This document shows positions 4,526-59,472 of a stretch of DNA of 64,000 nucleotides, in pieces. The stretch's first letter is position 1; each line of letters opens with the position of its first letter. The translations under genes were made by a program, and so were the position numbers. The stretch covers positions 123,566,001 to 123,630,000 of the forward strand of contig OZ024740.1 of the NCBI GenBank assembly GCA_964016885.1, read 5' to 3'. The notes beneath the pieces are model-generated. The model saw only the letters and a list, made by a program, of their open reading frames with translations, was not told where the DNA came from and ran no database searches. This DNA is from Eledone cirrhosa. Lineage: Eukaryota.

Positions 4526-5880
4526 CTACATTTTAAATTTATATTTATATTTAAACGTTGAGTTCAATCTATGTCTGCAGCAACTGAATAAATTGCTCCT
4601 TAAATTAAGGGAATTTTTGGACTTTAATATAAAGAATACCTCCTCCACACAGAGATCACATGTCTCTGATGAGGAATTAAAGGAAATTCCCTTTGAGACA
4701 ATATTCCAAAACATCGAATACTCAACATTATCTCGTTTAAGTTGCCAGAGTAGGCTTGATAGCGAAGTTGAGGATTTTTTGTTTGGATCTGTGAAAGAAT
4801 TCTTATGATTATTGAAGCGAAGTTTAAATTCTGTCGAGGTGGAACCAACATAGTTGAAAGAATTTAAGTTAGTTTTAACATTACAGTTGTATACATTTTT
4901 AACTAAGCAATTGTTATTTAACGGACAGTTAGATTTATTTCTACAGTTACAGTTATTTAATTGAATATTGTTTGGGTTATTATTGGTATATTGGTTAGGT
5001 TTTAAATTCCTATTATTAATTCTGTTAATATTTTGTGCTAAATTTTTGGTGGACGAGTAAGTTAATTTTATAGTATGTCTATTAAAAATTGAGTAATATT
5101 TATGTGTTCTAGGGAAGCGTTTGTCAAGAGCATTAAAGAATAGTTTAGCAATATGGGTTTTAATATTTAGTGAAAAAAGGGGGGGGGGGCACACCATATT
5201 ATATTTCTAGTTCTATTTCTTTTTCGGCTTTTGGAATTATTGTAATGTTTTCTATTATAGTTGTTAATGTTGTTACCGTAATTAAAATTGTTATTATGTT
5301 GGTTAGTTTGCTTATTATTATCGATGTACTTAATTTTATCACTATATCCTGCTCTACCTAACGCTTCATTGTAATATTGCGCTTTTTCATCAAAAATATT
5401 TTTATTAGATGAAATTCTTGAAATTCGTTCTTGAACAGAGTTCACTATAGTATTTTTAACAGATCTGGGGTGATTAGAGTTAAAATTGACATAATTCAAG
5501 TTCTCATTTAGTTTGGAAAATGGGTAGTGAAGACATGTGTTGAGATTTAGTGTTACATCCAGGAAATTGACTATTCTATGGTTATTCTCTATTTCTATTT
5601 TTAGATTAAGGTAATTAAAAAATTGTATAATTTGTTTTCTTTTTCTATTTAGTTCACAGTTATTATTTTCAATAAGTAAAAGCATGTCATCACGATATAA
5701 TCCTCCGGTTACACCTGGTATTTTTCTATGCAGCGAATTAATTATAAATAGGCCCACAAGGTCCGTTACCTGAGCTGAGTCAGATGATCCGATAGTTATG
5801 TCAAAATTATTATCTCTATCTGCCCTAGTCCATAGTTGGTTACTAAATTCTATCAATGTTTTCCTTGCCGATAATATGCA
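4526..5880 (-). pseudogene. PLE RT (LYRDD) + GIY-YIG endonuclease, frameshifted at the G-run near 5180
   Basis: FDITIGSSDSAQVTDLVG, GGLYRDD, FLDVTL, SNHP; CNCx5CPLxxxC linker; YVGST...RFNNH; CDLC; CRHR. Confidence 0.9.
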
Positions 5881-6398
5881 TTTCATTGCTAGTTTTACAA
5901 ATAATATGCATTTCATTGCTAGTTTTACAAATAAGCTTTGACGTGCCCTATTGAAATGCAACCATTGTTTTTGGAAGTCATCCGGATAGTGATTTGTTAA
6001 CTCAACTTAACATGACATGACGTAAAGTGTTCATAATCTCCCTCTCTCTATATATAACATTTCTCTCTCTTGAGTTTTTCTATCTGTCTGTTGACTTAAT
6101 ATCTCTCTGTTGCTTTCCTCTGTTTTTCTTATTTCTTCCTTTTTTCTTCTTTCTTCCTTTCCTCCATTCTTTTCTTATCTCTTTCTTTTGTTCTCCATGC
6201 ATCTATCTCTCTCCGATATTTCTCCACGTTTTTTCTTTCTCTCCGTCTTTTTCTTTCTCTCCGTCTTTTTCCAATTGTCCTTAACACTATGACTTATTAA
6301 AGTAATATAAACAAATCACTATCCGGATGACTTCCAAAAACAATGGTTGCATTTTAATAGGGCACGTCAAAGCTTATTTGTAAAACTGTTATATATTG

Positions 6399-8268: not shown

Positions 8269-11043
8269 TAGTAGTAAGGTGTTCGATGCTGCGACAATAG
8301 CCACCAGCGATGTGTGTCAAATGGCTAACGACTTAGTGAACAACTATTCGACCAGTACAATGAGGATGAATCATTAGCCAGAAATAGAAGCAATTACACC
8401 CCTTCAAAAGGTAGAAATAAAATCCTGGACGAATTCTGTGAACACATCACAAACTTCCCTTACCAACACTTGCACAGACAAAAACACAAGCCAAACCTCA
8501 ACAAGAAAGAATGGGAAGAATTAAATAGATTAAAAACCGACAGAACCATTACAATTAAAGAGGCTGATAAAGGGAGTACAGTAGTCCTAATGGAGACAGA
8601 ATTCTATATCAACTTAGCGCTCTCCACTTTGGAAAACGAAACATACTACGAAAAGGCTGAACACTACAATCAACAGAAAATTATGAGAAACCTAAAAACT
8701 CTAATCAACCAATACAAAGAAGGACTCACTAACAAGGAATTCAGCTTCATCACAGACTTCACAAGTAAATCCAGCCTTTTCTACGGTATCCCTAAAGTAC
8801 ATAAAAGCGAATCAATCAGTAGGGCATGCAAGGAAGCCACAGACATAGTCATCAATGTCCCCTCACCCAATGATCTCAAATTAAGACCTATAATAGCAGG
8901 CCCCGCTTGCGAAACGCACCGTCTTAGCAACTTCATTGATACCCTTCTCAAACCCTTCCTCAAGCACATCAAAAGCTATATAAGGGACGACCTAGATATG
9001 CTCAATCACCTCCCTAATATGCCACTTTCTGAACAAACCCTACTAGTGACGTTCGATGTAGTCAACCTATACTCCAACATCCCCCACAACCTAGGAATAG
9101 AAGCTATCCAATTCTGGCTGGATAACTTCCACAATGAACTCCCACAACGCATCAAAAAAGAATTCGTGATAGAGGGACTCAAATTTATCTTGGAGAACAA
9201 TTACTTCGTTTTCAATAACAAACCCTACAGGCAGAAATCTGGGACCGCTATGGGAACGAAAACAGCCCCTACGTATGCCAACCTAGTCATGGGATACCTG
9301 GAAATAACCCTCTACACTAAAGTCCTAAACAAATTTGGAAACACCCTCCACTTACACATTGAAAGGAACTGGAAGCGATATCTTGATGACTGCTTCATCC
9401 TTTGGCACGAAAACATCGAAAAACTTAAAGAATTTCACACCCTTATTAATGGGCTCAACACAAATATTAACTTCACGATGGAATACAGCCATCAACAACT
9501 CCCCTTCCTCGACATCCTCATTAAGATCCATAACAAAAAAATAGAAACAGACATATACTACAAGCCCACAGACTCCAAGCAATACCTCCCCTTCAACTCT
9601 TGCCACCCTAGACACGTTAAAATTAATATTCCCTACAACTTAGCCAAGAGAATCTGTACTATAGTCTCCAATAAAAACATCTGCTACTTACGGCTACAAG
9701 AACTGAAGGACACACTCATAGGCAGGGACTACCCTGCATCACTAATTGACAATGGAATCCAACGTGCCCTAAAACTCAGTACCCAGGACCTTAGACACCC
9801 TAAAGTAAATCAACCAAAACTAAAAGCTCTTCCATACATCTCCACACACAACCCCCTCAACAACGAGGCCTTTGACACCATCCTCCAGAACATCCCTGTA
9901 TTGAAAAAAGACCATAGAATGAACCAAATTCTACGAACACACGATATCATAAAGAGCAAAAGACAATCCAAGTCAATGAAAAACATCTTAACACATGCCA
10001 AAGTACTGCCAACCACAACAACGAAACCCACAGTAAAAAAATGCGATAGACCCAACTGTGGCATTTGCATCAACCTAATAGAGGGTTCGGAATTCTATTT
10101 CAAAGATGGACAACGTTTTATAGTAAAACACAATTTCACATGTGCATCGGAAAATTTAATATATGTATTAACTTGTTCAGGTTGTCGAGAACAATACATA
10201 GGCCAGACCAAAAACAGCCTCCGCCAACGCATGACTGTCCATAGATCCCAAATTAAAATACGGGAATACAGGAAAATACCACTGAGTGAACACATTGATA
10301 CCTGCGCCGCCCAAAATCATTCCAACTTCAGAATCTTTCCCCTCTACAAATTTAAAGATAATGCCACCCACACCCAGCGCATCAGCAAGGAATCTTACTT
10401 CATTAACAAATACGGACCCCGTCTAAACACTTCTCCCTAAGACGAACCCACAACATACACACGTCAACATACATACCTACATCAGCACACATCTCTACCC
10501 ACATATAAACACAATGACACGCGTAAACACACATGCTCTATGGTGCAATACAAAAAAATATATGTGCATATATATGTATGTATATATGTATATATATATA
10601 TATGTAGTGAAAATATATATATCTGTGTGTGTGTGTGTATATATATATAGTGAATATCATTTCACACCTTTTATTGTTAAGATTGTTGATGTTCTATTAA
10701 GAGAACCGATTTTACTGAAAAAATCGAATAATGTACACCATTTTACCAGGGGGGAAAAAAATACTGGTCCACCCACACACGCACACACACACACACACAT
10801 ATATACACAAACACATACACACGCGTACATCAACATACAAAGAGACTTATACACACACACACACACACACGCACTTCTCCGTATAAGACAAATGCTGAAA
10901 AATATCTTTTGACCTTCGAATGAGTCTGCTGTGTGTATGTACGCACACACACACACACACACACACATACACTTATCTTAATAGCCATTTGACACACATC
11001 GCTGGTGGCTATTGTCGCAGCATCGAACACCTTACTACTACTA

Positions 11044-14234: not shown

Positions 14235-14814
14235 CACTTTAATACATGAATACACTTACATCTAACTATACACATCAAACATATATATATATTTACTTAT
14301 TTATATACATTTTCACATATATATACATACTTATGGACGTTTTTAGACACATTCATTATCGCATATTTGCACCTATTCTCATCAGCATATCTTTCCATTA
14401 TTAGTGTGGTAATTTAAGGTTATTAATATATGTTGAGAAGAGATTGTTTTTATATTTGTCTAACTAGATTAAGGTTTATATAGTTGGGGGATGTCCCTCT
14501 TTTATGTAATATTCGGCTTGTAGTGGGAAAAAAGGGTTTTAGTTCTGTGACGGCAGAATAATGTTCGTTCAATTCTGTTATTCAGCAGTTTCCTCTTGTG
14601 TGTGATTATGTGATAAATCTCAAGATTACACAATTTGCAGAAATTTTGGCTCCTGGAAAAGCTTTGGGTTTTAGCTAATTTTTCCCATTTTAGGGTAAAC
14701 TTTTGATCGCTATCCCTGAGCGTCCAAGCTTTTTCTGCTAAAGTTGTTACATTTCTTTGGCTCTGGTGTTTTATTGAGTAAGAATGCCTATACAATCGAG
14801 ATTTAAACGATGTT

Positions 14815-15766
14815 GCCGAGTACTACGATAACGCACTTAGTAAAGCAGGCTACCTCAACAAAATAGAGTACATAGATGGGAACAATCAAAACACCCAAAA
14901 TAAATCCCACATAGGTAGATATAATAACACAACACCAAACCACACTTACTACCATAGTATGCACACCAGTAAACCAACAAACAAAACTAATAGAAAGCGA
15001 TGCAAAGAGTACTTATGGTATAACCCCGAATACAATAGTTCCATTAGTACAAATTTACCAGTACTCTTCTTTAAAATAATTAAAAGACATTTTCCCACAT
15101 CACACAAATACCACAAAATCCTAAACCCTACCACTATAAGACTGTCATACTCTACAGCGTTAAACCTTGAACAACACATAAAAAAGATCAATACTAGAAG
15201 GTTAAACGAAAACACTAAGAACTTAAGTACAAAGAACACAAAAAAAAACAGTAGACAATACACTACAGAACATAAATAAACCACACCTAAGTTCGTCCGC
15301 AATACTACTCCAGAGAAAACCCAACGTACACAACTGTAACTGCACCTATCCTGACAACTGCCCCCTCGGCAATAACTGCCTGGAAAAAAATATTATTTAT
15401 AAGTGTACCATTAAATCCGGAGGCAACGAGTGGTATTACGTGGGATCAACGGCAACATCGTTTAAATCTCGATTGTATAGGCATTCTTACTCAATAAAAC
15501 ACCAGAGCCAAAGAAATGTAACAACTTTAGCGGAAAAAGCTTGGACGCTCAGGGATAGCGATCAAAAGTTTACCCTAAAATGGGAAAAATTAGCTAAAAC
15601 CCAAAGCTTTTCCAGGAGCCAAAATTTCTGCAAATTGTGTAATCTTGAGATTTATTACATAATCACACACAAGAAGAAACTGCTGAATAACAGAATTGAA
15701 CGAACATTATTCTGCCGTCACAGAACTAAAACCCTTTTTTCCCACTACAAGCCGAATATTACATAA
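14815..15766 (+). pseudogene. PLE RT thumb + GIY-YIG fragment
   Basis: YYDNALSKAGY, WYNPEY, LSYST, CNCx5CPLGNNC, YVGST, RLYRH, CKLC, CRHR; frameshifted. Confidence 0.88.
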
Positions 15767-21635: not shown

Positions 21636-22540
21636 TTACATTTTATATATATATCTAAAGGTTGAGTTTAACCGATGTTTACAAGAACTAAATAAATTAT
21701 TCCGCATATTAATAGAGTTCTTAGATTTCCGTATAAAGAATATTTCCTCTACGCAAATGCTAAAAAAGTTGGATAGGGCTGTGTAGGATGGCGCTTTGTA
21801 GACACTATTCCAGCTTAAAGAGTAGTTTATATTCTTGGATTTTAAATTCCATAATAAGTTGTATAAAGAAGTTGAAGATGCCTTGGTAATATTCGTAAAG
21901 GAATATTTATGTTTATTGAAACGAGATTTGAAGTCTGCCGAAGTAGAGCCGACATAGTTGAAGGAATTATCTTTGGTTTTGACATTACAATTGTATACTA
22001 TATTTTTAACTGAACAATTATTATTTAGAGGACAGTTAAATTTATTTCTACAATTATAGTTATCGGAATTTATATTATTGGGAGCCGTAACATTATATTG
22101 GATATTGCTAGAGATATTAATGCTATTCTGGTTAAGTTTTAAGTTTCTATTATTAATTCTATTAATATTCTGCGCTAAATTCATAGTGGTAGAGTATGAT
22201 AATTTAATAGTATGTCTATTAAGGATTGAGTAATACCTGTGCGTCTTGGGAACACAATTATCTAGAGCTTTAAAAAATAGTTTAACTATTAGAGTTTCAA
22301 TTCTTAATGAGAAAGGGGGAGCAAACCATAATATATTTCTAGTTCTATTTCTTCTTTTGATTTTCGAGTTAGAGCAAGGTTTCCTATTATAATTATAATT
22401 ATAGTTATGGTTAATTGGCACATCCTTATTATCAATATATTTAATGTCATTATTATAGCCTGCTCTACTTAAAGCTTCCTTATAATATTGTGCCTTATCT
22501 TCAAATATATTTTTATTCGCTGAAATTCTAGAAATACGTT
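21636..22540 (-). pseudogene. PLE RT thumb + GIY-YIG fragment
   Basis: WFAPPFS, KLSYST, NCRNKFNCPLNNNC, YVGST, RFNKH, CKHR. Confidence 0.88.
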
Positions 22541-23881
22541 GCTCCTTAAATTCTAGAAATACGTTACTCCTTAAAACCTTTACTTTCTAATACTTATATT
22601 ATCGCACTTTTCAATCCTATCTCCAGAAATTCTTTTATGAAAATGTTTTGAAAAATTCTAAAAATTTCCTTCGAAACACCTCCTGAAAATGTTTTTAAAA
22701 CTTATGATTACATTTTTGAAAGGTTCTTTTGAAAGATACGAAAATCCACTATTTTCATATCTTCCATTACCCCTACATCTTCCAATATTCTAAACATGTT
22801 TAATACTTATGTATTTTCATATATATACAATTATTTTTAATACTTATGTATTTTCATATATATCCAATCATTTGTATATGTGGAATAATTATGTCTTATA
22901 TTTTAATTATATTTAAGATGAATTTTCATAACTTCTTATACATTTCGTAGTGATTTTTATCTATCCTTGGAGTCATTTAGATTTTTTAAAAATCCCTTTT
23001 AACTTCCTTTAAACTTCCTTATTGTTTTTATAATCTCAATCTTTATAGTCTTAATTTATAGTCGAAATTGTAAATTGTTTTAATATATACTCCTAATTAA
23101 ATCATTTTTCCTTTCTAAACTCTCGTAAATCTTCATAAATATTTGATGTTTAAGATTTGACTTACAACTATTAATAAACTCTGGCTAAATATAATTTTGC
23201 CAAACTTACTTTAATCAATTAAACTATACCTGTTTTTTTCTCCAATGCAAAATACTATACATTCAAATAATTGATAACCTATAACATAAAATACCCATCT
23301 AAACCTATATAGTATTAATACATCTTAATACATTTTAAAATACTTCTTCTTGTAATATATCTTATTGTAATTAATTAAATTTTAATTAAATTCTAATTAA
23401 ATTTCTGGTTAAATTTTTAACTAAATTATAACAATATTCTTTTGTAAATATTTGTTATCATTAATTTAATTTTTTAACTTTTCCTTTATAAATAATATAA
23501 ACATAACATAATGAATGATATATTTACATTCTAACTACTCATCTATATAAAATGTATTTCTTCGCTCACTTCGCCCCTCTTTCTCTTTCTTCTCTCTCCC
23601 TCTTACTACTCTTTCTCCCTCTTTTTTTCAATATTTTTTTCAATATTCTTTCTCTCTCCCTCTCAATACATTTTCCTTTCTCTCTCCATCTCAATATGTG
23701 TTCTTTCCTTCACTCTCTCTCAATATTATATCTCTTCTCTTTTTTCTTCTATCTCTCTCGTTCTCTTTCTATTCTCTTCTCTCTTCCATCTCACTATTCT
23801 ATCTCCCACCCTTTCAATATATTTTTTTTCTCTATCTCTCTCCCTCTCAATGTTTTTCTCTTATCTCTCTCCCTCTCAATT

Positions 23882-38300: not shown

Positions 38301-38617
38301 TATATAGTGATATTATATGCAATAAGCATCCAATTTAACACAGAAATAAAAGGAAACTACATTGTAATGCTACTTACTCAGAAGAAAGAGAAAACAAAAG
38401 TAAGTTACATTTAAGGAAAATGTAGGAAAATGTACAATATTATTATTACAGAGGAAAATGTACAATATTATTCCTTTTTAAGGGTTTATGATAATAGCTG
38501 GTATATGAGTAAGCAAAAAAAATAACATAAGTTGCAAAAAGAAGGAAACATAAAGGTGCCTCAAATGAATGTTATATTTGTGTGTGTGTATATATATATA
38601 TATATATTTATTATAAG

Positions 38618-38695
38618 AACAGATTAAAATTTAAGGAAAGAATCGCTGCTTTCAGCTTTAATGGGATCTTCTGAAACTAAGAAGTCAATTTGTTT
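38618..38695 (-). mobile_element. Solo pLTR/HHR remnant of the 51553-54810 PLE family
   Basis: Reverse complement: tttCAGAAGAtcccattaaagctGAAAgcagcgattctttcc. Confidence 0.7.
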
Positions 38696-51494: not shown

Positions 51495-51558
<64 letters not shown>

Positions 51559-51763
51559 ATAATAATAAAATTGAAGACTAAAATCCAAAGAGGGCTCGAT
51601 AAGGAAAATATATATCAAATATATAAGAACCGTAGAGCAAATATTTATTAAAATAACAGATTAAAGTTTAAGCAAAGAATCGCTGCTTTAACCCTTAACA
51701 GGATCTTCTGAAACTAACAATATTGGCTCCCTCGGTTGAGCACTCTACTGACTTATATTCATC

Positions 51764-53810
51764 ATGCAGAAACAACATCTGAATATTTCTACAAAGCAGG
51801 AAAACATACCTAAAACTCGTGAAACAGACGCGTTCATTAAAAGGTTGCGTTGGTGTGCCTTTTATTTCTATAATCCGCGAAAAGCAGACAACAAACAGGA
51901 TAAATTTGGATTTAAAACCTATAATAACACTCCGTGGAACACAGCATTGCTACCCTTCGAAAATGATGTCTTGGAACTCATTCGGAGTATCAAATTTCGG
52001 AATAGGAGCAATTCCTTCCAGCAAGACCTGAAGAATAGAATTCGTTCTATTAAGGATTCTAACGCCGTGCACGTCCATTCCGACAAAACTGGCAACCGAT
52101 ATCTTAAAACTAATCGGTGCGTCATCAATGAAATCAACGATGCTGGGTTTAAAATCTCATCTGATCTCAACATCCTGGACCGGACCGAACCTCTGGACCC
52201 TATCTCTACCCACTTTACCCTGAAGGATCACAAATCCAATTTTCCGAACAACCCCTCTATTCGGCTTATTAACCCTACGAAGTCCGATTTAGGTAGACTT
52301 GGTAAAACGATTCTTGATAGAATTACCTGAAATTAGAACTTTGGGCCCTCTCGCACTGTGGAACAATTCTTTCGCGGTGATTGATTGGTTCAACGGCATA
52401 TGTAACAGGGAACATTGCCGTTTTATCCAATTCGACATCAACAATTACTACTCCTCCATCACTTTACCACTTCTCCTTAGAGCTATCAATTTTGCTAAAA
52501 CACTCACAGTGGTTAAAGATTTCGAAGTTGATGTCATCCTTAATTTCCGAAAGTCGGTGATTAATTTCGACGACTCTATTTGGATTAAAAAATCCAATAG
52601 TACCCCATTCGACGTGAGTATGGGCGCCAGTGACTCTGCGGAGGTTACTGATCTTATTGGCCTTTTCCTTCTTTTCTCTATCAAGGACGAATTCCCCAAC
52701 GCGGGCGGTGGTTTGTACCGTGACGATGGTCTTTTGACCATGACTAAGTGCGGACCTCGTGCTTGCGACAGGTTCAGAAACGAACTCACAGCCTTCTTTA
52801 AAGGCTTCAACCTCTCTATACAGGTTGAGGCCAATCTCTCGGTCGTTAATTACCTCGACGTTACCCTCAATTTATTGAATGGGTTGTATTACACGTATAG
52901 AAAGCCGAATGATACGCTTAATTACATAAGTAAGCATTCCAACCATCCTTCCAGCATAACCAAGAACCTGGTAAGAAACGTTTCGTTGAGGCTTTCCCGT
53001 CTTTCCACCAACGAGCGCATTTTCAACGACCATTCCACTTATTACAATGAAGCTCTTGCTCGAAGTGGATTTGTCGATAAGGTAGCATATACAGAGTACG
53101 AAAATAGACCTAGAAGAAATAGATCCCGTCGCATTTGTTGGTTTAACCCACCATATAATATGGAGGTGGCCACACCATTAGCTAAGATCTTTCTTTCCCT
53201 TATTACGAAGCATTTTCCCCCTACACATAAATATAGTAAAATTTTTAATAGAAATACTATTAAAATTTCTTACTCTACGACTCCTAACCTTGCACATAAC
53301 ATCACAGCTTCAAATTTAGCTAAACTACCTAGCCGTAGGAACACGTGCAACCCTGTAGTTAGTACTAACTGTAATTGTAGGAATCGGGCTGATTGGCCCC
53401 TATCCGGGAAATGCCTCTCTAGTAACATCGTCTACAAATGTAAGGTTGTAACACCCACGTCCCGTAGGGCCTACATAGGATTAACCGCCAAGAGTTTCAA
53501 GCAGCGTCTTTACATGCATACCCATTCTTTTCGTTACCCTCTAAGAAGGCATATGACGTCACGTTCAGCTTATATCTGGAGTCTAAAAGACAACCACACC
53601 CAATATAAGTTACACTGGGTGATCCTAGCTAGGGCTAGATCGTATAACGGAAATAAAAGACCATGTGACCTCTGCGCCGCTGAGGCCCTGGAAATACTCT
53701 ACGCCACAGACCACATCTTAAACAAAAAATCTGAGGCAATTTTGGCTTGTAAACATAAATTGCACAAAACTTTCCTGTATTACAGCCCTACGTTATACCC
53801 TAACGGATAG
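51764..53810 (+). pseudogene. Naiad-like PLE RT + GIY-YIG with small deletions and frameshifts
   Basis: FIKRLRW, SDKT, TLKDHK, RLINP, QFDI..YYSSI, FDVSMG..D.AEV, LYRDDGL, SNHP, WFNPPY, YIGLT, CDLC, CKH. Confidence 0.92.
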
Positions 53811-54737
53811 CACGATCTATACGTGGATATTTTACATCTTGATGTGGGAGCTAAGTATATGTTTGTTTATTCCTTTACTTATTTGCATAGGTAAGTATAT
53901 ATTACCCGTATGTTTTGTGAAGGTATGTATACCTTCTCGTACGTATATTTGACTGGTATGGCGTATAATGTTTAAATATTCTGGTATTTAGGGTTTGGCT
54001 ATGCGTATACGGGAGTTTTGCGTCTGCGTGAGTATGGAGGTTCGTACGTATGGTGGGTGTGTGTATATGTGTACTTCTTGTTTTAGTTGACTTACGTCTC
54101 CGAACATTCGTGTATTTATATGTAGGTATGTGTGTGCGCTTGTTATATACGTATTTATTTACTTACATACGTTTATATTATTATTTATTTATTTGTACAC
54201 AAGCATACACACACACACATATTTATATGTGCGTGGTTTTGTATACCTATGGTAAGGTTTTGCGTATGCTTGTGTATGTACGTATCTGTTTACGTGTATG
54301 TATTTATTTGTTTCTATTACTTCTGTATTGTATTTATTTACTTTGTTCTTAACTCTGTAGCGGAGATTCATTTGGTTTCCTAGTTAGAATTTTAGTCTAC
54401 GACTTCTGCTATACCATTTACGTGGTTTTGTCTTTGCGTGCTATTGTTCTCCACGATCCACATATGACTTATTATCTTCGTTTTTTCGTTCATTGCCAGA
54501 GAACGTCTCTATGCACCACCTAAGAGAACATTAGTATACGACCTCTTTTATACCATAAACGTGGTTCTGTCTTTGCGCGTAATGGTTTTTCACCGCTCCT
54601 ATTAATGACGTATTATTCGTTTTTCCCCGTTCTTTGCCAGCGAACGTTTCCACGAGCCAAAGTATCGTCTTCCTGTCTTCCTCCGGTTGCAACGTTTTTT
54701 GAAATATCCACTTCTGCGTTTACAGATTGACTTTGTT

Positions 54738-54788
54738 AGTTTCAGAAGATCCCGTTAAGGGTGAAAGCAGCGATTCTTTGCTTAAACT
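54738..54788 (+). ncRNA. Hammerhead-like motif with variant core CAGAAGA
   Basis: AGTTT CAGAAGA T CCC gttaa GGG T GAA AGCA gcgattctt TGCT T AAACT; further copies at 51665-51715 (-), 56536-56586 (-), 59310-59359 (+) and 38628-38678 (-). Confidence 0.7.
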
Positions 54789-54824
54789 TTAATCTGTTAT
54801 TTTAATAAATATATATATATATAT

Positions 54825-55763
54825 ATACATTTAAAGTGTACGATAAACACGAAATGTGTTTACATTGCAACAGACAAAGTTAGCCGTTAATGAAATAAAC
54901 TAATAAAAGTGAATACAATTTATCTGTCTCGATATAAGTCAATAAAGACAATATTATATTGGCAACAGCCATGATTCCTGAACATATTTAAATTTCAAAA
55001 TTCAAACCTGTTCTGTAGACGAATTTGAACCTCGAAACCCAAATAAGTTTCGCAACGGTGGAATGTGAATTGAAAAATAAAGAGAATCGAAATGGAATAG
55101 AAATAAAAGAGTGAAATACCCAAATCTTCTGTGCTTATCAACAGGAATCCAGTAAGATTAGTCTATCACACATCAAAAATTTTGCAGGACTGACTACACG
55201 TGGGTAGGCAGGCCAGAACTAGCTATCCCACATTCACGGTGCTAGAAATCCTGCATAAGCGGCTGTTATTTCTAGCACCGTGAATGTGGGATAGCTAGTT
55301 TTGGCCTGCCTACCCACGTGTAGTCAGTCCTGCAAAATTTTTGATGTGTGATAGACTAATCTTACTGGATTCCTGTTGATAAGCACAGAAGATTTGGGTA
55401 TTTCACTCTTTTATTTCTATTCCATTTCGATTCTCTTTATTTTTCAATTCAAATTCCACCGTTGCGAAACTTATTTGGGTTTCGAGGTTCAAATTCGGCT
55501 ACAGAACAGGTTTGAATTTTGAAATTTAAATATGTCCAGGAATCATGGCTGTTGCCAATATAATATTGTCTTTATTGACTTATATCGAGACAGACAAATT
55601 GTATTCACTTTTATTAGTTTATTTCATTAACGGCTAACTTTGTCTGTTGCAATGTAAACACATTTCGTGTTTATCGTACACTTTAAATGTATTAACTGCT
55701 CGGAAGAGACCCTTCCTGGAGCTTAATTATTGTAAACGACTGAGAGTTTATTCTCAAAATATA

Positions 55764-55765
<2 letters not shown>
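54825..55765. repeat. Near-perfect palindrome of about 870 bp (arms 54825-55249 and 55268-55692) plus a tail of about 70 nt
   Basis: atacatttaaagtgtacgataaac...gtttatcgtacactttaaatgtat; few mismatches; (TA)n on both flanks. Confidence 0.9.
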
Positions 55766-55838
<73 letters not shown>

Positions 55839-56509
55839 ATGCATATGTATGTGCATATGTGCATAAATGTATGTATGTGTATATATATCTGTGAGTGTAT
55901 GTGTATGTATATCTACGGATGTGTATATACATGTGTGTGTGTGTGCATGTATATATACGGGTGCGTTAACGTGTGTGTGTATGCGTGCGTATATAAACGC
56001 GCGCCTCTCTGTGTGACTATTTCTGTGTTAACGTAAGCACACAAGCTACTCTGAATGTATCTTCTCACTGTGTCTCTGTGTGTATGTGCGGGTGGGAGTG
56101 TGGGCTGACAAACAGCAGTCATTTTGCCGACGGGGCAGTGAGTGAGTGACAGCTATCATCCTGACGATAAGCGGGCTGCTAGAAGTGGTCAGAATAATGA
56201 TGTAGTCACTAACTAGTGACCAACTCAAGGACACGCAAAGCGGATGGAGGTGGACGATATGCGCTTGTAGGGCCAGAAAACACCAGAAAGAGGATTTGTT
56301 CCGAAATCAATAGTCATGTCCGAGGAACCTGCGAGTATAGAGTCAGGTAGATCCACACATGGATCGCACCTCGAGCTGTTCGCCGGGGAAACACTTACAA
56401 CAGACAATAAATTGAGTTCTGATGCATCACTGACTTTTCGTTTTCCATTCTATAATACTCTGCTCTGTAGGAGCATAGAGTGCTACCATTATATATATAT
56501 ATATATATA

Positions 56510-59470
56510 TAATATTCATTAAAATAACAGATTTAAGTTTAAGCAAATAATCGCTGCTTTCACCCTTAACGGGATCATATGGAACTAAAAAAATCAATCT
56601 GTGAACGCAGAAGTAAATATATCGAAAAACGGTGCAACCCAAGGAAAACAGGGAGACGATACTCTGGCAATGCACGGAGCTCTAGGGTTCTTATATATTT
56701 GATATATATTTATCCTTATCGAGCCCTCTTTGGATTTTAGTCTTCAAATTTATTATTATTACTATTTGGCTTCCTCGGTTGAGCACTATATTGACTTATA
56801 TTCATCATGCAGAAACAACATCTGAGTATTTCGACAAAGAACATACCCGTGCCAATCAGGAAGACATACCTAAAACCCCTGATACAGAAAACAGACTGGT
56901 TCATTAAAAGGTTGCGTTTACGTGCATTTTATTTCGATATTCAGGAAAAAGCGGACAATAAACAGGATAAATTTGGGTTTAAAACTTACAATAACCCTCC
57001 GTGTAACCCAGCATTGCTACTCTTCTAAAATTATGTCTTGGAACTCATACGGAATATCATGTTCCGGAATACGAGCAATTCCTTCCAGCAGGACCTGAAG
57101 ATTAGAATTCATACTATTACGGATTATAATGCCGTGTACGTACACTCCGACAAACGTGGCAATCTGTATCAAGTGGAGCATAGTACTTACCATCAACTGC
57201 TACATAATGCCGTAACTAAGGATTACCGTAAAACTTATCGGAGTGTCATTAATGACAACAACGATGCTGGGTTTAAAATCACCTCTGATCTGAACATCCT
57301 GGCCCGGACTGAACCTCTGGACCCTATTTCTCCCCACCTTACCCTGAAGGATCACAAATCCAATTTCCCCAACAACCCATCTATTCGGCTTATTAACCCT
57401 ATGAAGTCCGATTTAGGTAGACTTAGTAAAAGGATTTTAGATAGGATTATACCTGAAAATAGAAACTTGGCCCCTTTTTCACTGTGGAACAATTCTTTCG
57501 CGGTATTTGATTGGTTCAACGGCATATGCAACAAGGAATATTGCCGTTTTATCCAATTCGACATCAATAATTACTACTCCTCAATCACTTTACCAATTCT
57601 TCTTAGAGCTATCAATTTCGCTAGAACGCTCACGCTGGATAAGGATTTCGAAGTTGATGTCACCTTCAATGCCCGTAAGTGGGTCATTAATTTCGACGAC
57701 TCTATTTGGATAAAAAATCTAATAGTAAGCATTCGAACCATCCTGCCAGCATAACCAATAACCTGGTAAGATACGTTTCTGTGAGGCTTTCCCGTCTATC
57801 TACAAACGAGCATATTTTCAACGATCATTCCACATATTACAATGAAGCTCTTGCTCGGAGTGGATTTGTCGATTACTATACCGAGTATGAGCATAGACTT
57901 AGGAAAAATAGATCCCGACGGATTATATGGAGATGGCCACGCCATTAGCTAAGATCTTTCTCCCCCTTATTAAGAAGCATTTCCTCCCAGCACATAAATA
58001 TAATAAATTTTTTAATAGAAATACCATTAACATTTCTTACTCTACAACTCCTACCCTTGCACATAACATCACTGCTTCAAATTTAGCTAATTTACCTAGC
58101 CGTAGGAACACGTGCGACCCTGTAGCTAGTACTAACTGTAATTGTAGGAATCGGGTTGACTGCCCCCTATCCGGGAAATGCCTCTCTAGTAACATTGTCT
58201 ACAAATGTAAGGTTGAAACAAACGTCCCAGAGGGCCTACATAGGGTTAACCGCCAATAGATTCAAGCAGTGTGTTTACATGCACACCCATTCTTTTCGTA
58301 ACCCACTAAGAAGGAATATGCCGTCACTTTCAGCTTATATCTGGAGTCTAAAAGACAACCACGCCAAATATATGTTACACTGGGAGATCCTAGCTAAAGC
58401 TAGATCGTATAACGGGAATGAAAGACCTTGCGACCTCTGCGCCGCTGAAGCCCTGAAAATACTCTGCGCCAATGACCACATCTTAACCAAAAATCTGAGG
58501 CAATTTCGGCTTGTAAACATAAATTGTATAAAACTTTCCTGTATTACAGCCACTCATTATAACCTAGCGGATAGTACGAACATTATGCGGATAATTGACG
58601 TCCTGATGTGGTAGCTAAGTATATTTTATGTTTATACCATTACTTATTGGTATAGGTAAGTATATATTACCTGTATGTTTTGTGAAGGGACGTATACTTT
58701 CTCGTACGTATATTTGCTTGTATTTGTTATAGGTGTATATATTACATTATATATACTGGTACATGTGTATATGTTTATGTGTATACGTGTATTTTGTGTT
58801 TGCGTGTGTATGCGGGTTTGCACGTATATAGGGTGTGTAGATGTGTATTTTGTGTTTTGGTTGACGTAGTTTAGCGAACATATGTGTATTTACCTGTAGG
58901 TATGTGTATGCGGGTTTGTATGTGTGCGCGGGTTTTTGTATGTGTGCGCGTGATTTTGTTTACGTGCTTGTATATACATACACATGGTGTGTGTTTTCGC
59001 GTATGCATGTGTATGTACGTATATGGATGCGTGCATGTATTTGTTTAATTATTGTTGATTTCATTAACTTCAGTAATTTATTTACATTATTCTTAACTTT
59101 GAAGCCGAGATGCATTAGATTTCCTAAATAGAATTTTAGTCTAAGACTTCATTTATAGCAGAAACGTGGTTTTGTCTTAGCGTGTAATTGTGCTCCGCTC
59201 CACATAATGAAGTATTATCTTCGCTTTTGTTCCGCTCATTGCCAGGGAACGTCTCCACGAAACACCTTAATAAATATTTACTTCTGTGTTCACAGATTGA
59301 TTTTTTTTTATTTCAGAAGATCCCATTAAGGGTCAAAGCAGCGAAACTTTGCTTAAAATTTAATCTGTTATTTTGATAAATATTTGCTCTAGAGTTCTTA
59401 TATATTTGATATATATTTATACTTATCTAGCCCTCTCTGGATTTTAGTCTTCAAATTTATTATTATTACT

Positions 59471-59472
<2 letters not shown>
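56510..59472 (+). mobile_element. Second, more degraded copy of the Naiad-like PLE family, with the RT core deleted
   Basis: ORF remnants 56807-58567 are homologous to 51764-53810; about 330 bp missing near 57725; inverted pLTR at 56510-56668. Confidence 0.9.

Follow-up and report, generated by a model that had tools for sequence, protein, structure and literature searches.

We describe two sibling copies of a Penelope-like element (PLE) in a 64,000-nucleotide stretch of the Eledone cirrhosa genome (contig OZ024740.1, positions 123,566,001 to 123,630,000). This whole stretch is the window, and unsigned coordinates refer to it. Copies A and B belong to the same family and are separate insertions into (TA)n tracts. 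Their bodies are 79-88% alike, and the open reading frames (ORFs) of both are broken. We number the element from its short end, S, which is position 0 (window 54812); the long end, L, is at +89, and the leader of the ORF is +90 to +130. From these copies, and from end repeats of the same family elsewhere in the genome, we will argue that the elements are probably copied from two fixed sites, S and L, by priming from both strands of the target.

Copy A has a (TA)n target tract on its left (51498..51555, no strand). The copy begins with an inverted L arm on the minus strand (51553..51720), which includes the L end, the tail, and the hammerhead motif and runs from +89 to -79. The sense body, on the plus strand, starts at +87 to +90 and continues to S. 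It comprises the leader (51723..51763), a frameshifted ORF with its ATG at 51764 (51764..53810), a 3' untranslated region (UTR) with a 139-nt internal repeat (53811..54737), a type I hammerhead-like motif with the Hydra layout and the core CAGAAGA (54738..54788, with a predicted cut after 54783), and the short end (54789..54812), which is followed by (TA)n. The first base of the hammerhead motif (54738, + strand, position -74) is the putative transcription start that we discuss below.

Copy B has the opposite arrangement. Its inverted arm (56511..56678, minus strand) has the S end and extends from 0 to about -168, and its sense body (plus strand) runs from +3 to L. The body comprises the upstream tail in sense orientation (56679..56765), the leader (56766..56806), an ORF relic with its ATG at 56807 (56807..58575; it is interrupted by stops and frameshifts and lacks about 320 nt of the reverse transcriptase), a second hammerhead-like motif (G12 is changed) up to the S position (59309..59383), and the 3' tail (59384..59472), which reaches the L end at +89 (59472) and is followed by (TA)n. 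The inverted tail and hammerhead of copy A (51553-51720) match the 3' end of copy B (59472-59311) at 91%, and the two tail copies within copy B are 95% alike over 87 nt. The first-pass annotation had described this structure to within 1-2 bases: it placed the short end of copy A at 54810 instead of 54812 and the start of the sense tail in copy B at 56678 instead of 56679.

The single ORF contains both a reverse transcriptase (RT) and a GIY-YIG endonuclease (EN). In copy A, these are marked by RW, DKT, YRDD (in the RT), a linker, and the C-terminal motif YKC..AYIG, with CxxC..E and N..E..CxH. We found 699 homologs, as single proteins of up to about 740 amino acids. Of the 74 homologs with at least 650 amino acids, 73 have DKT instead of DKG (it is at residue 111 of frame 1 in copy A), 73 have the CxCx5C linker, and 66 have RW[KR], where the Hydra motif is RWK and copy A has RWC. 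The linker is intact in copy B; in copy A, its last C is changed to W. Copy A has CxxC and CxH beside a conserved E and N (CDLCAAE and NKKSEAILACKH) and, judged by eye, lacks CCHH. The endonuclease motifs are C-terminal, so the element does not have the N-terminal endonuclease by which Naiad and Chlamys are recognized. A Pfam scan of three ORF pieces matched 0 families. TA adjoins 268 of 286 S or L ends, and the structural marks of EN+ PLEs are present: partial tandems, an inverted 5'-truncated copy, and a tail at one end.

These features resemble those of the Hydra clade, whose members insert into (TA)n (Craig et al. 2021, PMC8557442). The likeness extends to the C-terminal GIY-YIG-type EN without CCHH, the DKT, the CxCx5C linker, the CxxC/CxH around E and N, the 3' type I hammerhead of equal layout, the inverted 5'-truncated copy, and the tail at one end. 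In contrast to the clade as presented in that paper, the tail here is 89 nt (versus 30-40 nt), the unit is about 3.2 kb (versus mostly less than 3 kb), the hammerhead core is CAGAAGA, the ends number about 30,000, and the hammerhead sequence differs from the Hydra-1_oBim row; this comparison is one of features. Going by their sequence features, copies A and B are a Hydra-type Penelope-like family with a variant hammerhead core, a new family of a known kind.

We counted exact pattern matches across the genome (controls with reversed patterns gave 0). The 3.0-Gb genome has about 30,000 end repeats of this family: the 25-mer before the short end has 29,755 exact copies, and the next letters are TATA in 13,549 of these and the tail in 13,293. 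Short and tail-bearing ends are therefore nearly equal in number. At its L end, the tail continues into TATA 15,048 times and into the leader 443 times. Furthermore, at three loci (L018, L027, and L030), the UTR, hammerhead motif, tail, leader, and ORF form one continuous run. Given these runs and the 443 exact junctions, we can identify the 89-nt tail: it lies upstream of the ORF leader and is the start of the next unit, as has been described for PLEs of Adineta and Anolis. This agrees with two proposals of the first-pass annotation, namely that the tail is the upstream part of the leader region and that the template is longer than one unit. It had also proposed two AT-rich priming sites that anneal to (TA)n. 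There are indeed two fixed start points, both of which read TAT|TTG(G)CTC; annealing to (TA)n would be limited to 3-4 shared bases, which are indistinguishable from target sequence. Contigs from public sequencing runs (three sets from one sample, which may be the same sample as the assembly) also have loose ends that run into (TA)n at the S and L points.

The two kinds of ends are strictly paired. We inspected two samples of loci, each of 79 segments. Sample 1 covers the neighbourhood of the first 100 hits of the 25-mer, and sample 2 that of another 102 hits on the same contig as sample 1; the latter were drawn from the lists of short and tail-bearing ends and so leave out the 10% with other continuations. 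In sample 1, 47 of 50 head-to-head pairs had one S and one L end. We fixed this as a prediction before looking at sample 2, in which 50 of 54 pairs had one of each. Overall, the count is 97 of 104 (p about 1e-21, with all 7 exceptions taken as misses). The exceptions are one SS pair, one LL pair, and five pairs of S with a partial or degraded tail; sample 2 had no SS or LL pairs. Most insertions are short, with a total length under 500 nt in 62 of the 104 pairs. Among the 21 insertions with an arm of at least 1 kb, 11 have L and 10 have S at the end of that arm. This confirms the reciprocal use of ends that had been noticed between the two siblings, and it implies that copies A and B are two equally common outcomes of one rule. 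The sampled ends also included 10 read-through junctions.

We consider it likely, on the evidence of these sequences, that in the main route of insertion both strands prime, at two sites, on a single RNA that is capped and terminally redundant. The element's protein would cut both strands of the (TA)n target, and each cut end would start reverse transcription of this RNA: one at S and the other 89 nt further on, at L. The template would consist of the end repeat, leader, ORF, UTR, and a second end repeat plus tail, and each of the two TAT|TTG(G)CTC sites would probably be bound by one half of a protein dimer. The two complementary DNAs (cDNAs) would stop at the 5' end of the RNA or, at variable places, earlier, and would be joined head to head, often via 1-7 nt of microhomology. 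The cDNA that runs further would become the main body, which is why copies A and B would look reciprocal.

The two arms of an insertion have a common source, or so their variants suggest. Of 245 polymorphic sites compared within pairs, 224 are the same in both arms, where 137 would be expected. In 57 pairs, the arms also have 10 rare variants in common (shuffles gave 0.005 per pair). Where the arms have long overlaps, they are closer to each other than to the arms of other insertions in 34 of 36 cases. Shared variants would also arise by fold-back or self-priming, in which one cDNA (or, as proposed in PMC3846280, an antisense template) folds back to serve as its own template and the second end is trimmed by the endonuclease; the microhomology or palindromes at many junctions (1-19 nt of overlap in 59 of 104) fit this idea too. 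However, fold-back copying requires nested arms, and in 10 of the 21 long insertions, a long S arm accompanies a short arm that bears the tail. Of 99 L arms, 23 fall short of the S arm's stretch, and S arms are often longer, so fold-back copying cannot give these pairs. Some junctions have a separate G on each arm (L135, L185/186, and L286). The non-nested pairs largely refute this explanation, which we regard as very improbable.

Classical twin priming of the L1 type would have the second primer land on the upstream end repeat and the main cDNA stop exactly there. The main arms of copies A (+87, partner L) and B (+3, partner S) and of locus L120 (+19, partner S) fit, and 6 of 10 arms longer than 2.9 kb stop at +19..+135. 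But L141, L148, and L266 (partner S) stop at +81..+102, L078 (partner L) stops at -5, and L110 stops at +135. Also, partner arms extend 440-1,640 nt into the UTR and ORF, and most pairs overlap on the template. The rule that the main arm stops at its partner's start site fails in most long copies, and we give L1-type twin priming very little credence.

Two-strand priming on one RNA gains from where the arms stop. Among the 5' ends of 306 arms, 24 are at -74 and 16 are at -71 (stop rate 0.13, where the background is about 0.006 per base); 56 lie within -76..-70. Paired arms tend to stop in this zone together (both in 14 pairs, only one or the other in 8 and 3, neither in 72; odds ratio 42). Genome-wide, the letter before -74 is T, as in the template, 17,262 times, G 1,451 times, and C or A 1,155 times; one base further on, before -73, all three non-A letters together occur just 930 times. 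We read 20 of the G junctions: in 11, the G is in neither the template nor the partner arm, in 3 it is possibly from the partner, and 6 are undecided (L192 and L193 look like duplicates). The A at -74 is the first base of hammerhead stem I and lies within TTAGTT, which resembles an initiator (Inr) element. An extra G at complete L1 5' ends has been read as a copy of the cap (PMC11702581). We infer that a major class of RNA starts, with a cap, at -74.

We rejected two other ideas. A spliced short first exon does not account for the stop at -74 because at most 1-2 upstream letters are common to the 20 G-bearing junctions, although the splice site might be used in other transcripts. A template jump that retains the cap does not fit either, as 0 of the 156 arms that run on have a G at -75. 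Just before the hammerhead motif of copy A, 54718-54745 resembles a branch point, a pyrimidine tract, and AG; in Drosophila virilis, an intron ends at hammerhead helix I (PMC4209133).

Several observations weigh against this account. About 87 of the 306 ends have no detected partner (47 in sample 1 and 41 in sample 2). Of the sample 2 arms that end near -74, only 7 of 21 have the G (12 have T and 2 have A). The G might not copy the cap but have been added without a template at a pause next to the U-tract, and the stops at -71, as well as 3 of the 20 G cases, are explained by the palindrome TTCNGAA (microhomology) and by partner sequence. In 76 of 99 pairs, the L and S arms cover overlapping parts of the template, which means that a single RNA has to serve twice as template. 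The shared variants could also be due to two RNAs from one locus or to gene conversion between the arms. Finally, of 30 tail-to-leader loci, 11 are mini units (described below) and 19 extend into the ORF. None of these 19 read-through arms starts at -74; 14 start further upstream and 5 start at -5..+19 (one is copy B). This requires a second, longer class of RNA.

The double reading of one template would not be needed if the two strands were primed on two RNA molecules from one source locus, with a dimer whose asymmetry imposes one start at S and the other at L. Shared variants would follow from the common locus. The arms of copy B differ in structure, as two RNAs would allow, though each variant is found only in B among the fetched loci. 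On the other hand, the joint stops near -74 are simplest with one shared RNA 5' end, and two RNAs would require an extra source of asymmetry. We think that this explanation is unlikely.

The first-pass annotation had proposed that the hammerhead processes the template. A circular model of this kind has been put forward in PMC4209133: after cleavage of the transcript by the hammerhead, the unit closes into a circle, which the RT copies to give permuted, over-unit copies. As noted above, 14 of the 19 read-through arms pass upstream of -74 without a break. Where an arm contains tandem duplicates, these differ at just 1-5 of 200-300 columns, and tandem mini units of about 370 nt exist. Nevertheless, 0 of the 306 arms start at the predicted cut (-28), and there are just 5 stops in -31..-25, a rate of 0.003, which is below the neighbouring rate. 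The arms stop instead at -74, with the extra G, and a circle has no end to produce such a stop.

The hammerhead-like motif itself (-74..-24) has a layout that matches the Hydra rows in File S2 of PMC8557442, but its core is CAGAAGA in 195 of 195 arms, a fixed U4-to-A change. In part 2 of that File S2, every Hydra core has CTG (CTGA.GA). CUGA-turn mutants of hammerheads are reported to have low activity (PMC9901934), and a U4C variant to keep some activity in vivo (PMC3088659); our literature search on the exact U4A change had no match. Rfam gave 0 matches at the gathering score. Folding of five stretches gave none that was better than shuffles beyond z -1.8 (z -0.5 to -1.8), and we saw no covariation in the motif, in a family that is too uniform to show any. 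We also considered a hammerhead of type III or in opposite-strand register that would cut at -75, and rejected it by eye, as its stems fail to pair. Altogether, we doubt that the template is processed by the hammerhead, and we consider the circular model quite unlikely as the main route. A hammerhead-cut or circular template may account for some over-unit copies. More generally, the longer templates might come from tandem sources, host read-through, template jumps, or circles, which are indistinguishable by these copies.

The 11 mini units (L063, L067, L070, L071, L073, L075, L076, L077, L081, L084, and L089) keep the tail, the leader, and the ORF start up to +160..+207 and then jump to the end repeat. 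L006, L012, and L014 are further mini derivatives. All of these are retrozyme-like, and a mini unit of about 370 nt with the breakpoint +198/-169 recurs with a shared flank. By analogy with the Anolis element (PMC11167929), the mini units suggest that a cis region, where protein would bind, is needed just downstream of L. Near-full-length arms, including those of copies A and B, often stop at +3 to +135 of the upstream repeat (8 of 12, with weak statistics), perhaps at a bound protein.

A stronger form of two-strand priming on one RNA is possible, and we hold it only tentatively: every complete insertion would be the work of an RT-endonuclease dimer bound to a single capped RNA at two related motifs, which are 89 nt apart; each cut strand would receive one motif, and the same template would be copied twice. 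The hammerhead would be non-cutting and would serve as a promoter start or as a protein scaffold. If this is true, target-primed insertion would have a second basic mode, one without second-strand priming at the 5' end, and the tail and the inverted repeat of Penelope-like elements generally would be explained.

The tail, the inverted end repeat, and the two start sites are already-published features of PLEs (Craig 2021, Arkhipova 2013, Frangieh 2024), so the earlier observation was mostly of known PLE anatomy. What we add is the strict pairing of S and L, the long arm at either end, the shared rare variants, and the pile-up at -74 with the extra G. Neither strict S+L pairing nor a cap G is mentioned for PLEs in the literature that we searched, which excluded older subscription papers and some supplements. 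The origin of the PLE tail and of the head-to-head repeats is still debated, and the sole in vitro study maps two start sites, with the later steps unvalidated. About 30,000 young ends give population-scale rules that separate the published ideas (circle, self-priming, and endonuclease trimming) and that can be tested by an existing assay. The two-armed shape itself is known; it is the strict pairing and the likely trace of the cap that make the copying step testable.

That in vitro study concerns Poseidon PAc of Anolis (Frangieh et al. 2024, PMC11167929): two RT start sites bound the tail, both strands are cut and extended, a dimer is predicted, and the hammerhead cut is dispensable. Our family is similar in its two internal start sites around the tail and its AT-rich target, and probably also in the cutting and extension of both strands, the dispensable hammerhead cut, and the need for sequence downstream of the start sites. 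In contrast, the start sites of Poseidon PAc are inside the ORF, whereas here they are upstream of the 41-nt leader, and that study saw no strand difference in start site; in its available portion, neither the pairing of one S with one L nor a capped stop at the 5' end is described. Penelope families of Adineta vaga, as presented by Arkhipova et al. 2013 (PMC3846280), also have a direct and an inverted pseudo-long terminal repeat (pLTR) with an optional tail on one of them, a pLTR and tail that lead into the ORF start, and an Inr-like element in the pLTR. Self-priming on an antisense template was proposed there, and the non-nested arms here speak against it. L1 twin priming (PMC11702581) is similar in that both target strands prime on one RNA, there is microhomology at the inversion junction, and complete 5' ends have an extra G. 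Unlike those of L1 as described there, whose arms are adjacent and non-overlapping and whose inversion is occasional, the arms here overlap, there are two fixed start sites, and inversion is the rule. Animal non-long-terminal-repeat retrozymes, as reported in a preprint (bioRxiv 10.64898/2026.07.22.740005), are also short tandem units from a PLE end repeat with a hammerhead. This likeness is limited to the mini derivatives, whose self-cleavage is doubtful because of U4A, and does not extend to copies A and B.

The window contains other relics of PLEs. A solo short-ended arm of the copy A/B family lies beside a TA tract at 38604-38693 (minus strand). ORF relics of other PLE families, with a similar Cys linker and endonuclease motifs, are at 4526-6006 (minus strand), 14782-15766 (plus strand), and 21636-22586 (minus strand), and another PLE clade has an uninterrupted 703-amino-acid frame with RT and GIY-YIG at 8329-10440 (plus strand). 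Directly after copy A is a near-perfect palindrome (54825-55692) without any match to the element; its 425-nt arms are 99% complementary and are separated by an 18-nt spacer.

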